Assembly (NCBI GenBank): GCA_963783305.1
Contig: CAWAMW010000012.1
Coordinates: 64,001-128,000 of the forward strand
Origin: an uncultured Gemmatimonadales bacterium
GTDB lineage: Bacteria; Gemmatimonadota; Gemmatimonadetes; Longimicrobiales; RSA9
Length of the DNA: 64,000 bases
Direction: 5' to 3'
Shown here: piece after piece, positions 12,001 through 18,000 of the stretch
Numbering within the stretch: the first letter of the stretch is position 1
Layout of the letters: every line of letters begins with the position of its first letter
Position numbers: made by a program

Positions 12001-15000
12001 ATGGTCCCGACGTCGGCGCCCATGAGCGCCGACTCCACCACGTGCTGCGGGTGCCGGATGGACGCGGCCAGGATCTCGGTGCCAAAGCCGTAGTTGTCGT
12101 AGATCAGACGGATCTGGCGGATCAGGTCCATGCCATCATGGGAAATGTCGTCGAGGCGGCCGACGAAGGGCGAGATGTAGCTCGCGTTCGCCTTGGCGGC
12201 GAGCAGCGCCTGCGTCGGCGAGAAGCAGAGGGTGACGTTTACCGGGATGTCGTCGGCGCGCAGCCGCCGGCACGCCACCAGTCCGTCCTCCGTCAGGGGT
12301 GCCTTCACGACGATGTTGTCGGCCAGCTTCGCCAGCTTCCTGCCCTCACGGACCATCGTCTCGGAGTCCGTGGCCACGACCTCCGCGCTGATGGGGCCCG
12401 GTACCGCGGCGCAGATCTGCTTCAGGATCTCGCGCGGGTCCCCGTCCGCGCCGGCCGCCTTCGAAAGCAGGGAGGGGTTGGTCGTGATGCCATCGATGAG
12501 GCCGGCGTCCGCCGCCCGCTTGATCTCGTTCAGGTCGGCCGTATCAAGGAAGATCTTCATTCCGTGGTCCCTTAGGGTTCGGTTGCTCGTCATCGTAATA
12601 GACACGCGCGAGGAACAGCCCCTCCGCCGGGGCGGGTGGGGACGTCTCCAGCGCATCCGATGTGCGTGTGTCCAGCCGTGTCTCGTCCAGCAGTCCCGCA
12701 ATGTCACTGGCGGGTCGGCGCCCGCGGGCCGCGTCCACCATGGTGCCCACCAGGTAGCGGACCATGTGGTGGAGGAACCGGTTCGCCACGACCCGGTACT
12801 CCAGCCCACCCGACCACTCGGTCCAGCGCGACACATGGACGGTGCAGCGGTAGCCTCGCTCCGGCTGACCGCTCTTGGCGTACCCCCGGAACTGGTGCTC
12901 CCCCAGGATCGCAGCGGCCGACCGGTCCAGGCCGGCCCGGTCGAGGGGCTCCTCCACCGGCCAGCACCAGCCGCGCCGGAACGGCGACCGCGCAGAGGGC
13001 CGCGTCCCGACACGGTAAATGTAGCCCCGCGCGGTGGCGCTGTAACGGGCGTGGAAGTCCGAGGACGCGGACGCGGCCTCGGAGACCCAGATGCCCGCCG
13101 GCAGGATGGCGTTGAGCGACCTGTGGAGCGCCGCCGCCGTCCACTTCTCCGGCATGGTCACGCTCGCCACCTGACCCGTAGCATGGACCCCCGCGTCGGT
13201 TCGTCCCGCCGCCATCGACGTGACGGTCCGATTCGCCAGCCGTGACAGGGCAGCGTCCAGCTCCCCCTGGACGGTCCTCACCCCCGGCTGGATCTGCCAG
13301 CCGTGGAACGCAGAGCCGTCGTAGTGCAGCGTCAACCTGATCCGGCGCGGGGATTCCGTGGGCACCGGGCGAAGGTATGGCTCCGCCCACGCGCGAGCAA
13401 CGGAGCCACTGGACCGGCTGGAGACGCAGGGCGTTGACAGCACCGCCGGTGACCGGGGATCTTGCGAGTCCCTCGAACCCGGTAACCATGGCGGAATTGG
13501 ACGAGCAGGAGACGGGGCCTTCGCTGAAGGACCTGATCGGAAGGCTGTCGACGCGCGCGGACCTGTCTTCGGACGAAGCGCGAGCGGCGTTCGAGACGGT
13601 CATGGGCGGGCGGGCATCGCAGATCCAGATCGCCGGGCTGCTCGTGGGGCTACGCACGAAGGGTGAGGGTCCGGCGGAAGTGGCCGGCGGGGTGCGCGCC
13701 CTGCGAGAAGCCATGGTGCCCGTGGCCGCCACCGACCCCGATTCCCTCGTGGACACCTGCGGGACGGGCGGGGGCAGTCTCACCACGTTCAACATCTCCA
13801 CCGCCGCAGCCCTCCTCGCCGCCGGAATGGGCGTTCGTATCGCCAAGCACGGCAACCGCTCCTTTACCTCGAAGTGCGGGAGCGCCGACGTGCTCGAGGA
13901 GCTCGGGGTCCCGATCGATCTGCCACCCGAGGCCATGGCGGAGATCCTGGACCGGGCGGGCATCGTCTTCATGTTCGCCCCTCTGCTCCACCCCGCCATG
14001 CGCCACGTGGCTCCCGTACGCCGTGAGCTGGGGATCCCCACCATCATGAACCTGCTGGGTCCCTTGACCAACCCCGCCGGGGCGCGCCGCCAGGTGGTGG
14101 GCGTAACCGACCCTGACCTCCTCGACCTCGTGGCTCGGGCGCTCCGGGAGCTCGGCCATTTCCGGGCGCTCGTCGTCTACGGCGAGCCCGGTCTCGACGA
14201 GCTCAGCCCCCTCGCCCCCACTCGGATCGCCGAGCTGGACGGGGACACGGTCCGGCAGCGCACCGTCTCTCCCGCCGACTTCGGCTGGAAGGGACTCGCT
14301 GCCACCGATCTCGCCGGCGGACTGCCCCCCCACAACGCGCGCGTCATTCTGGAGGTGTTCCGGGGCGAACGGCGCGATGCGGCCCGGGCCGCCGTGACGC
14401 TGAACGCCGCCGGCGCGGCGTACGTGGGCGGGATCGTGGACTCGCTCGAAGAAGGTGTCGAGCGTGCGGAAACAGCGCTGTCGGAGGGTGCGGCGCTGGA
14501 GGCGCTGGACCGGCTGCGGACGGCTACGCAGCGGGTCACGGGGTAAGGCATCGAATTGCGATTCGGGGCGGCAAACCCCCGGCTCTGATGGGTCCCCTAA
14601 CGCGCCGGGTGGGGCGTAACCACCGCCCGGAGCGTCCACGGACCGCGGATCGGCTGAACCGGCTTCTCCGACCGCTGCTCGGCCCCGTTCAGGAGCACGA
14701 CCGTGGTCCCCTTGCGTGTCCTCCGCCCCACGACGAACGGTCGGTCACTCCGCTTCATGCGTACCTCCGGATCACGCCCACCACGATGCCCTGGACCATC
14801 ACGCGGTCCGCACCGAAGTACATGGGCTGCATCGCTTCGTTCGCTGGCTGGAGCCGGACCTGGCCGTCCTTCTCCCGATAGAACTTCTTCACCGTGGCCG
14901 ACTCCTGGTCCACCAGCGCCACCACCATTTCTCCGTTGTCGGCCGTCTCCCGCTGCTTCACCACCAGGTAGTCGCCGTCGCGGATCTGCTCTTCGATCAT

Positions 15001-18000
15001 GGAGTTGCCGTTCACGCGCAGCACGTAATGCTCACCGCGGCCCAGCATCTCCTCCGGAACCGCGATCGTCTCCTGCCCCGCGATGGCCTCGATCGGCTCC
15101 CCCGCCGCCACATCGCCCATCAACGGCACCGGCACCGCGGTCAGCCGCATTTCGGTCGGCACCACCTCGATGGACCGGCTCTCGTTGTAGCCCTTTCGGA
15201 TATACCCCTTCGTCCGCAGATTCTCGAGGTGTTCGTGCACCGTGGCCAGGGACGTGTAGCCGAACCGGTCCGCGATCTCCTCGAAGCTGGGCGCGTACCC
15301 GTGGTCGTCCGCGAAATCCGTGACGAAGTCGAGGATCTCCCTCTGCTTCTTGGTGAGCGGCTTCTTCTGTGACAGCATTCTGGGCCTCCCGAGGGGCGAG
15401 CGCCGTAGTGGTCCGGCCATAGCGGCCGCCGAACAAAGTCCGAAGCCAAGGATAACCCGAACAACGACCGAAACGCAAGGGCAATGGGGATACTGGACGA
15501 GATCGTACGGGAGAAGAGGGCGGAAGTGGGGCGGCTCGCGCCGTGGGCGGGAGCGTTGCGGAAGCAGGCGGAGGGGATGCCGGCGCCGCGCGATTTCGCG
15601 AGTGCGCTGCGGGGCCCGAAAGGGGTGGCGCTGATTGCGGAGGTGAAGCGGAAGTCGCCGTCCGCGGGTTGGATCCGGCGGGACCTGAACGCGGCTGGAC
15701 TGGCCTCGGCGTACGCGTACGGGGGTGCGTCGGCCATCAGCGTGCTGACGGACGAAGCGAACTTCGGCGGTACGCGGGAGGACCTGGAGGCGGTGCGGGG
15801 GGCGGTGGAAGTGCCGGTGCTGCGGAAGGACTTCCTGGTGGAGCCGGTGCAGGTGTACGAGTCGCGTGCGATGGGCGCGGACGCGGTGCTGCTGATCGTG
15901 CGGATCCTGGAGGATGTCCGGCTGCGGGAGCTGCTGGCGCTGGCGCGTGAGCTGGGGATGGCGGCGCTGGTGGAGACGCACGACGAGGCGGAGCTGGAGC
16001 GGGCGCTGTCGGTGGGGGCGGATATCGTGGGGATCAACAACCGTGACCTGAAGCGGTTCGAGACGGATCTCGCGGTGGGGGAGCGGCTGGCCCCGGGCAT
16101 CCCCGCGGACGTGGTGGTGGTGGGGGAGAGCGGGATCGAGTCGGCTGCGGACGTGGATCGGATGGGAGCGGCGGGTGTGGACGCCGTTCTGGTGGGGGAG
16201 TCGCTGGTCCGGGCGGATGACCCGGTGGCGGCGGTGGAAGCGCTCGTGGGTCGGCCGCGGAGGGGGCGATCGACGTCATGAGCGCTGCCGCGAGCCTCTT
16301 CGTGAAGGTGTGCGGGGTGTGCGATCCGGGCGACGCGGCGTATGCTGTAGCGGCGGGGGCCACGCACGTGGGCGTGATCCGTGTACCTGGCAGCCGTCGA
16401 GCCCGGCCGCTGGAGGTGGCGCGGGACGTCATCGCGGCGGCCGCGGGGGCCCGCAGGGTGGGAGTCTACGTGGACGCCCGGGAATCGACGATCCTGCGGG
16501 AAGCGGAGTTCCTGGGGCTGGACGTGATCCAGCTGCACGGCGGCGAGGGACCGGAGCGGACCGCCGCGCTGACGGAGCGTGGCTACGAGGTCTGGAAGGT
16601 GGTCAAGCCGGCGCGCGGGAGCGACCTTCTGGTGGCGGCGGAGCGATTCGGTTCGGCGGACCTGATCCTCGTGGAGGGCCAGAGTTCCCAGGGCCATGGC
16701 GGCGTGGGAGCGCGCTTCCCGTGGGAGGAGGTGGCGGCGGTTCTGGACGCGCTGCCGCCGGGGACGGCCCTCGGAGTGGGAGGCGGGCTGACGCCGGAGA
16801 ACGTGGGGGAGGCGGTGCAGCGGTTCCGGCCGAAGCTGGTGGATGTGAGCTCCGGGGTGGAGCTGGAGGTGGGCCGCAAGGACCGCGCGCTCGTACGATC
16901 GTTCATAGAGGCGGCGCGGTCGCGGGACGAGGCGGGAACACAAACGAATTCGTGAAGAAGAGTGGTGGGTGGATGGAAGCAGGCGTGAAGGGCGAGGGTC
17001 GATTCGGGGCGTACGGGGGGCGGTACGTGCCCGAGACGCTGATAGCCGCGCTGGACGAGTTGACGGAGGCGTACGCCGCGGTGGCCGGGGACGAGAGCTT
17101 CCGGGAAGAGCTGGAGTCGCTCTGGCGTGACTACGTGGGCCGGCCCACGCCGCTGTACCGGGCGAGTCGTCTGGGGGAGGCAGCGGGGTGCGAGGTGTGG
17201 CTGAAGCGGGAGGACCTGAACCACACGGGCGCGCACAAGATCAACAACACGCTGGGGCAGGTGCTGCTGGCGCGGCGGATGGGGAAGCGGCGGATCATCG
17301 CGGAGACGGGGGCGGGCCAGCACGGCGTCGCAACGGCCACGGTGTGCGCGCTGTTCGGCCTGGAGTGCATCGTGTACATGGGTGCGGAGGACACGCGGCG
17401 ACAGGCGCTGAACGTGGTCCGCATGGAGATGCTGGGAGCGGAGGTTCGGACGGTGGAATCGGGGACCCGGACGCTGAAGGACGCCACGAACGAGGCGATC
17501 CGCGACTGGGTGACGAACGTGGAGGACACGCATTACATTATCGGGTCGGTGGTGGGTCCGGACCCGTACCCCCGTATGGTGCGGGATTTTCAGGCCATTA
17601 TCGGCCGCGAGGCGCGTCAGCAGGTACTGGATCGTACCGGCCAGCTCCCGGCCGCCGTCGTGGCATGCGTGGGAGGTGGCTCCAACGCCATCGGCATTTT
17701 CCACGAGTTCATCGCAGACACCCAGGTCGAGCTGATCGGCGTCGAGGCCGCGGGAGAGGGGCTGGATTCCGGCCGTCACTCCGCGTCTCTCGGTGCGGGC
17801 ACGCCCGGGGTGCTGCACGGGTCGCTGAGCTATCTGCTCCAGGACGAAGGCGGCCAGGTGGCTCCCGCGCACTCGATCTCAGCAGGGCTCGACTACCCCG
17901 GTGTGGGGCCGGAGCACTCGTGGCTGCACGACACGGGGCGAGCCGAGTACGTGGCGGTGGACGACGTCTCCGCGCTCGACGCTTTCCACCGGCTGGCTCG

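Follow-up and report, generated by a model that had tools for sequence, protein, structure and literature searches.

A conserved TTCGG direct repeat is a probable LexA operator in Gemmatimonadetes

Introduction

Soils and sediments harbour abundant Gemmatimonadota, and a literature search, which covered few subscription papers and no supplements, found no LexA motif or SOS box described for the phylum. The lexA locus examined here lies on a 64,000-nucleotide stretch of an uncultured Gemmatimonadales genome (the window) and raises the question of whether a short direct repeat 5' of the gene is the site through which LexA acts. An initial annotation had proposed that this repeat, TTCG-N7-TTCG, is the phylum's own LexA operator, occurring twice before lexA and once before recA, imuA, dnaE2, a UvrC-like gene, a DUF3072 gene and, more weakly, dinB. 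Our comparative analysis supports the reading of the repeat as a direct-repeat LexA operator, which it very probably is, and revises both the membership and the taxonomic range that had been assigned to it.

Results

The lexA gene, encoded on the minus strand at 14755–15378, specifies a 207-residue protein that scores 210.8 bits on TIGR00498 (cut-off 110.95). When it is aligned with E. coli LexA, the Ala92-Gly93 cleavage site, Ser126, and Lys164 all prove intact, and the helix reads S43-LATVHEH, with Glu49 opposite E. coli Glu45. A putative ribosome-binding site, GGAGG, is located at 15385–15389 (minus strand). Two tandem copies of the eight-letter repeat TTCG-N7-TTCG do precede the gene on the minus strand (15430–15444 and 15458–15472), and the core box is TTCGG-N6-TTCGG, with a period of 11. 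Scored with a matrix trained on relatives only, putative operator 1 (15457–15472, minus strand) reaches 25.4 bits and putative operator 2 (15429–15444, minus strand) 21.0 bits. Operator 1 fills the 18-base spacer between a predicted -35 hexamer, TTGCGT (15473–15478, minus strand), and a predicted -10 hexamer, TATCCT (15449–15454, minus strand), a position matched in relatives, while operator 2 lies 3' of the predicted -10. A consensus promoter scanner called neither a promoter nor a -10 at the lexA locus; conserved TTG and TA sequences nevertheless lie on either side of box 1. The divergent neighbour trpC (15484–16281, plus strand; NF001377, 302.5 bits, above cut-off) has its start codon 12 bases from operator 1 and, as far as tested, stands outside the operator system.

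An unbiased dyad count 5' of lexA ranked TTCGG-N6-TTCGG first, and the box was present in 78/78 relatives versus 0/78 coding controls. The second box was also found in all 78 relatives, in every case 3' of the -10, at spacings of 16–29 bases. Around the first box, TTGC lies two bases upstream in 76 of the 78 relatives, and TA lies one or two bases downstream in the ten commonest patterns, which account for 64 of them. The TTCGG halves of the lexA box are fixed (1.8–2.0 bits), while its spacer and flanks are free to vary, with less than 0.4 bits at the central spacer positions. Within the phylum's sister classes the lexA box takes the form TTCGC, with TTGAC at the -35 place, and it is there that flanking hexamers, TTGACT and TATAAT, are clearest around box 1. 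The previously reported division, by which class Gemmatimonadetes has TTCGG and its sister classes TTCGC, was upheld, and the cross-phylum counts for lexA and recA were reproduced on larger samples. The box is not phylum-specific, since it also lies 5' of lexA in Patescibacteria, in a Krumholzibacteriota genome, and, in its TTCGC form, in Acidobacteriota.

The signal of the motif is the location of its matches, not their genome-wide number. TTCG-N7-TTCG occurs four times in the window against 1.7 expected, a count reached by 9 of 100 shuffles and therefore weak alone, whereas TTCGG-N6-TTCGG occurs three times where 0.17 are expected, a count that none of 100 shuffles attains. Genome-wide, the 107 matches to the shorter form do not exceed other spacings out of codon phase, the 15 occurrences of the longer form show no enrichment (5–37 for other spacings), and matrix matches of at least 19.5 bits are not over-represented (8, versus 0–7 for wrong-period controls). 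Because the motif stands at genome-wide background, single non-conserved sites can be chance. The top eight sites of the relatives-only matrix across the 4.35-Mb genome include imuA, lexA (twice), recA, the DUF3072 gene, dnaE2, and the UvrC-like gene. A promoter-plus-box pattern also gave 41 matches in viral contigs, two of which adjoin lexA.

All eight genomic sites listed in the initial annotation exist; seven are perfect TTCGG-N6-TTCGG boxes, and the dinB site has TTCTG as its first half. The genes 3' of the recA, DUF3072, dinB, and dnaE2 sites are clearly identified. That of imuA is less secure: its matches to RecA/ImuA are weak, and an IMS_C gene follows it. Among orthologues in class Gemmatimonadetes, the box was found at 24 of 29 recA genes (it is absent from the other five), 6 of 7 imuA genes, and 10 of 26 dinB genes; the DUF3072 gene, which here has a perfect box of high matrix rank, carries one in both of its two orthologues. 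Matched coding controls for these genes contained none. Support for dinB does not extend to the present genome, where the proposed site is at best 12.4 bits and falls within the 5' end of a divergent ORF. For the UvrC-like gene the perfect box is real, but the gene's identity comes from sub-threshold uvrC/Cho matches and none of seven orthologues conserves the box. A recA scan that returned mostly other phyla found the box at 6 of 10 Gemmatimonadota loci; of the 69 other loci only one, from an Acidobacteriaceae genome, had it.

As previously noted, recA lacks the box outside class Gemmatimonadetes (0 of 15 sister-class genomes), though promoter-like words of the TTGAC type precede it there. 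Control from an upstream operon was considered and rejected, as no box lies within approximately 1.5 kb 5' in the 15 loci. The promoter-plus-box arrangement was found only at lexA in four of five sister-class genomes tested, and nowhere in the fifth; the box may therefore serve little more than lexA autoregulation in these classes.

Two further candidates were discarded. A 16.0-bit site lies just 5' of uvrB in this genome, yet a box is present at no more than 1 of 29 orthologues, which excludes uvrB as a class-wide member. A 25.0-bit site between bactofilin and Nif3 genes (C2:901098) has no counterpart reaching 16 bits in 28 orthologues (one locus with too short a flank was dropped) and is possibly due to chance or genome-specific. 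The latter site adjoins DnaA-box-like words.

The fifth base of the half-site tracks the LexA residue equivalent to E. coli Glu45: Glu, Gln, or Asp accompanies G (TTCGG), and Lys accompanies C (TTCGC). Glu occurs with a GG box in 129/129 Gemmatimonadetes loci, whereas Lys is found in 12/12 sister-class loci, ten of them with a CC box, and with a CC box in 41/47 Acidobacteriota loci. Among 16 lexA genes located 3' of a TTCGG promoter, 13 encode Glu, three Gln, and none Lys. Lys does not imply a box, as ten Lys-type LexAs in a 31-row Acidobacteriota phylum sample lack one, and four Glu/Gln-type Patescibacteria loci have no box within 520 bases. We suggest that the Glu45-equivalent residue probably reads the fifth base pair, which on the other strand is C for Glu, Gln, or Asp and G for Lys.

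The helix motif SxATVHxH is common to LexAs of Gemmatimonadota, Patescibacteria, Acidobacteriota, and Krumholzibacteriota. In a tree of 96 rows (quick search only, two short rows left out, no outgroup LexA, and deep branches weak), LexAs of the sister classes fell apart from those of Gemmatimonadetes. The nearest LexAs found outside the phylum are acidobacterial, at 57–63% identity to a sister-class LexA. The best tree puts the Glu/G state in four places; an AU test on 33 rows with the trait column removed did not reject a single Glu/Gln clade (p 0.166), and the residue-base link may therefore reflect just one event.

Discussion

We hold with high confidence, on comparative sequence grounds, that the repeats 5' of lexA are operators of the adjoining LexA and that repression, RecA-triggered cleavage, and regulon release would follow the scheme proposed here. 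The canonical LexA would bind TTCGG-N6-TTCGG as two half-sites one helical turn apart, and the box would belong to the LexA lineage with the SxATVHxH helix. With one lexA site in the -35/-10 spacer and a second just 3', the positions of the boxes suggest that bound LexA would block RNA polymerase. Upon DNA damage, RecA filaments would trigger LexA self-cleavage at Ala92-Gly93 via Ser126 and Lys164, freeing lexA, recA, imuA-imuB, and dnaE2, to which some families would add dinB and a DUF3072 gene. The motif lets the DNA-damage regulon of Gemmatimonadota be read from genomes as lexA, recA, imuAB, and dnaE2, often with dinB and the DUF3072 gene.

Could a different regulator bind the box, such as a non-cleavable LexA-like paralogue or some unrelated factor acting over lexA and the repair genes? 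A second LexA-like gene is indeed present in this genome and in many relatives. However, the paralogue was found, with the query used, in only 8 of 25 class genomes, it differs in its helix (STKTVSE), and it has no box 5' of it in any of the eight, which agrees with the earlier observation that the second lexA of this genome lacks a full box. An unrelated factor would not explain why a letter of the box tracks a helix residue of the canonical LexA, and we regard control by any such regulator as very unlikely. Slightly less probable still is that the repeat is not a repressor site but a promoter element of stress genes, recognized by RNA polymerase or by an alternative sigma factor. Such a role would fit the fixed place of box 1 between the TTG and TA hexamers at lexA, a placement often seen also at imuA and dinB promoters, but it is difficult to reconcile with a second box that always lies 3' of the -10 at variable spacing, with recA boxes in both orientations (11 forward, 13 reverse), as expected of an operator, and with sigma-70-type hexamers that already flank box 1. 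That the lexA boxes persist only by shared ancestry of intergenic DNA, the other sites being chance, gains something from the non-independence of kin and the background genome-wide count, but is largely refuted by the same box at non-homologous promoters (recA, imuA, dinB, and the DUF3072 gene) and at lexA of other phyla, and by half-sites that stay fixed amid freely varying spacer and flanks, and we consider it highly improbable.

We give an even chance to a broader proposal: one old direct-repeat LexA lineage may span Gemmatimonadota, Acidobacteriota, Patescibacteria, and Krumholzibacteriota, and within it repeated switches of the Glu45-equivalent residue between Glu/Gln/Asp and Lys may each have been accompanied by a change between G and C, in either direction, at the fifth position of the two half-sites. 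If so, the repeated switch would be a natural counterpart of the laboratory E45K change, several 'lineage-specific' SOS boxes would come under one rule by which protein predicts box, and a clean protein pair would be at hand for working out the way a LexA dimer engages a head-to-tail operator. The residue-to-base association is the more valuable part of this work, as it permits a one-mutation test of direct-repeat LexA specificity.

Among known systems, the Patescibacteria LexA motif is reportedly a direct repeat as well, its LexA having been likened to that of Acidobacteria. The comparison here uses our own sample, not the published matrix: of 30 lexA loci drawn from the phylum to which a Kerfeldbacteria genome belongs, 16 carry TTCG-N7-TT(C/T)G. 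Most of these boxes have two TTCGG halves, and TTGAC often precedes them. Box letters, promoter position, and the ATVHEH-type helix are the same as in Gemmatimonadetes, which differ in phylum, in nearly always having two lexA boxes, and in a TTGC -35. The LexA box of Acidobacterium capsulatum is said to be GTTC-N7-GTTC. The acidobacterial LexAs nearest to those of Gemmatimonadota have the helix SLATVHKH and a box that shares the period and promoter position of the Gemmatimonadetes box, but differ in a fifth base C, a second half that is often TTTGC, and Lys as the helix residue; 17 of 31 rows in the phylum-wide sample have other helices and no such box.

Other known boxes are more distant. The alphaproteobacterial box, the direct repeat GTTC-N7-GTTC (PMC3323433, PMC8565304), shares the period of 11 and a TTC core in the same register; unlike it, the Gemmatimonadetes box has G before TTC in only 9 of 161 first and 93 of 161 second halves, and GG after TTC is near-invariant. 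The Gram-positive box, GAAC-N4-GTTC with half-site CGAAC (PMC3323433, PMC11442139), is a palindrome and not a direct repeat, yet CGAA also appears in the Gemmatimonadetes half-site when its complementary strand is read, frequently extended to CGAACA in the second half. The Balneolaeota motif (PMC7739468) is likewise a direct repeat, and its regulon similarly takes in lexA, recA, and translesion polymerases, whereas its letters, TTACACATATTTTWTACATA, are unrelated. A direct-repeat LexA box is expected in kind, being known from several phyla and matching that of Patescibacteria, and is newly placed in Gemmatimonadota.

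The probable lexA operator and its predicted promoter

The window, G000:C12:64001-128000, contains a lexA gene (14755-15378, minus strand) that is canonical by profile search (TIGR00498, 210.8 bits) and whose protein carries Ala92-Gly93, Ser126, and Lys164. It lies between trpD on one side and the divergent trpC on the other; a trp cluster (13377-16281) is thus split by a reverse-oriented lexA, and the trpC start codon is 12 bases from operator 1, the box copy nearer trpC. As the initial annotation reported, two matches to TTCG-N7-TTCG precede lexA, occupying minus-strand positions 15430-15444 and 15458-15472. 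This eight-letter pattern is weak by itself, since its 4 matches in the window were equalled in 9 of 100 window shuffles and its 107 genome-wide matches equal background. The informative form is TTCGG-N6-TTCGG, a direct repeat with a period of 11 (hereafter the box), with 3 matches in the window versus 0.17 expected. The third match, at 62740-62755 on the minus strand, scored below 13 bits on a motif matrix built from relatives and was considered chance.

To assess conservation, we took the best 80 of 167 relatives and left out two with fewer than 150 bases upstream of lexA (n = 78). When spaced pairs of 4-mers were counted without bias, TTCG-7-TTCG and its extensions ranked first, being present at 78/78 lexA loci and 0/78 coding controls. 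Two boxes occur at all 78 loci, 24–26 bases apart in 66, and TTGC stands two bases ahead of the first box in 76. This conserved spacing and the position of TTGC argue that box 1 fills the -35/-10 spacer of a predicted promoter (TTGCGT, 18 bases, TATCCT), with box 2 just downstream of the predicted pair. Because a consensus promoter scanner called no promoter at the window's lexA, we only infer this position.

A phylum-wide search matched lexA in 247 of 251 genomes (a tally that includes genomes marked unpublished). Among its best 30 loci, all 26 from class Gemmatimonadetes carry the box. Thirteen genomes outside the class had a match; of the 11 examined, 10 have a TTCGC-type box within 500 bases of lexA, the exception having only a 182-base flank. 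The proposed division between TTCGG in the class and TTCGC elsewhere is therefore borne out. We conclude with high confidence that TTCGG-N6-TTCGG is a real, very probably functional LexA operator, which upholds the original proposal in its longer form.

By analogy with established SOS biology, as outlined in parts of PMC3323433 and PMC8565304, LexA would bind the two half-sites one helical turn apart, presumably repressing the lexA promoter by covering it twice and other promoters by covering them once. DNA damage would then trigger RecA-dependent self-cleavage of LexA, removing it and inducing these genes.

Conserved members of the predicted regulon

A matrix of 88 distinct sites, trained on relatives only, was scanned against the 4.35-Mb genome and gave eight matches of at least 19.9 bits: imuA, lexA (twice), a Nif3 gene, recA, a DUF3072 gene, dnaE2, and a UvrC-like gene. 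Wrong-period controls gave 0–7 matches, indicating no excess, and orthologue support was therefore needed site by site and was sought in the 350 bases upstream of each gene, against matched coding controls. The recA box is present in 24/29 class orthologues and 0 controls (21/26 without G095, G252, and G253, genomes marked unpublished and all positive), and is absent from all 15 usable recA loci outside the class (16 examined), in agreement with the class restriction noted initially. Of the other genes to which single boxes had been assigned, imuA (6/7 orthologues, one locus left out; 5/6 without the unpublished G095) and DUF3072 (2/2) were retained, while the UvrC-like gene (0/7) was rejected as a conserved member. 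For dnaE2, a box precedes the gene in two Gemmatimonadales loci of a pattern scan. In sister classes of the phylum, 4 of 5 genomes tested have a promoter-plus-box pattern at lexA alone, and the fifth has none.

All eight site positions listed in the initial annotation exist; the weaker one, assigned to dinB, has TTCTG as its first half. At 12.4 bits and within a divergent ORF, the dinB site of the source genome is not supported. Among relatives, dinB has a box in 10/26 (8/24 without G252 and G253). We also rejected uvrB as a class-wide member (1/29 orthologues) and the Nif3 gene (0/28); these two counts include unpublished genomes and are negative either way.

The small DUF3072 gene (L123:3178-3411, minus strand; also stretches L569 and L571) has a box in all 3 family-carrying genomes of 41 searched and is a candidate SOS gene. 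In recA promoters (L310-L337), 13 of the 24 class boxes are mixed, TTCGC then TTCGG, while lexA boxes have TTCGG twice; the mixed half-sites may tune affinity. The mutasome of the source genome is split (G000:C16:381191-402k; L120, L124), with ~16 kb separating imuA-imuB from dnaE2 and a separate box at each, and its DnaE2 has a long insert within the PHP region. A perfect LexA-type box also lies in the intergenic region between a parB-M23-bactofilin cluster and the Nif3 gene (G000:C2:900900-901125; L121), where it touches words that we take to resemble DnaA boxes. Such words occur in 4 of 28 orthologous Nif3 regions, in identical order in all 4, and none of the 28 has a LexA-type box. This region is possibly an origin.

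The second LexA-like protein

Consistent with the initial annotation, the second lexA (L082:1495-2160, corresponding to G000:C7:127352-128017, plus strand) has no box at any of its 8 orthologue loci, its own included. With the query used, the gene was found in 8 of 25 class genomes. Neither the Ala-Gly site nor the catalytic Ser is present in any of the 8 aligned proteins; one keeps the Lys, and they have a conserved but different helix (STKTVSE). This protein is unlikely to bind the box and appears to belong to a family of non-cleavable repressors with a separate target. In the source genome, a tRNA-Gln gene precedes its start by a few bases.

Occurrence of the box in other phyla

The box is not specific to Gemmatimonadota, as its presence at lexA in other phyla shows. 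A scan with a sister-class LexA alignment matched mostly Acidobacteriota, whose lexA promoters contain TTGA-N2-TTCG in 42/47 loci and the full TTCGC-N6-TT(C/T)GC in 41/47. In a phylum-wide Acidobacteriota sample of 31 rows (the best 30 loci and one further locus), a promoter box is present in 11, a looser match in 3, and neither in 17. Scanning all genomes for TTGAC-N-TTCGG-N6-TTCGG gave at least 120 stretches. Among the matches listed, 80 were examined and lexA lies downstream in 16; these come from Patescibacteria, Krumholzibacteriota, Gemmatimonadota, and a Phycisphaeraceae contig whose lexA is 723 bases away. On two viral contigs (L644, L680) that have no lexA, four box-like matches fall within 1.2 kb; these may be simple repeats. 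In an unselected Patescibacteria sample (the phylum of a Kerfeldbacteria genome; best 30 loci, 52 genomes matched of 71 searched), the box is present at 16/30 lexA loci versus 1/30 controls.

A LexA helix residue covaries with the fifth base

In an alignment, Glu49 of the window's LexA corresponds to Glu45 of E. coli, and the residue at this position is strongly associated with the last letter of each half-site. Glu occurs with G in both halves (GG) in 129/129 Gemmatimonadetes loci, a tally that takes in the window's own locus and counts a few contigs twice. Lys occurs in 12/12 sister-class loci, with CC in 10, TC in 1, and no box in the one with a short flank, and Lys with CC in 41/47 acidobacterial loci. 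Where lexA lies downstream of a TTCGG promoter among the matches listed (16 genes), the residue is Glu (13) or Gln (3) and never Lys. Fourteen boxed Patescibacteria loci have Glu, Gln, or Asp, with G in both halves in 10 and in one half in 4; the two with Ala have CC (L634, TTCGC twice) and TT. A box is absent from four further Glu/Gln loci of this phylum and from its four Lys loci, whose helix is different. In the Acidobacteriota sample, one Glu-type LexA has TTCGG twice, and Arg accompanies TTCGT/TTCGC in two loci (L479, L491). Genomes marked unpublished (G260, G283) contribute one row each to the trees and to the table of residues and bases.

Glu generally prefers cytosine and Lys guanine, which fits the opposite-strand half-sites, CCGAA with Glu and GCGAA with Lys; E45K is reported to alter the preferred first base pair. 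PMC11442139 lists Glu45 as one of the residues with which E. coli LexA reads bases. According to bioRxiv 10.1101/2020.07.14.201889, which cites Thliveris and Mount 1992 for this, specific binding to the recA box is lost in E45K. In a 33-row tree with the trait column removed, Glu/Gln rows fall in four places, and a single clade was not rejected (AU p 0.166). We consider the chances about even that a natural Glu/Lys specificity switch was repeated across phyla.

Relationship to known LexA boxes

No Gemmatimonadota LexA motif was found in the literature searched, with most subscription papers and supplements outside its scope, and the phylum's word stem is absent from PMC7739468 and PMC8565304. 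Portions of PMC7739468 describe a different direct-repeat LexA box in Balneolaeota, its authors stating that direct repeats arose several times. The alphaproteobacterial box, GTTC-N7-GTTC (in parts of PMC3323433 and PMC8565304), has the period and TTC core in common with the Gemmatimonadetes box, whereas the latter does not keep the conserved G. The Gemmatimonadetes box matches that at Patescibacteria lexA in the present sample. It is a known kind of SOS box, apparently that of Patescibacteria and Acidobacteria, now assigned to Gemmatimonadota.
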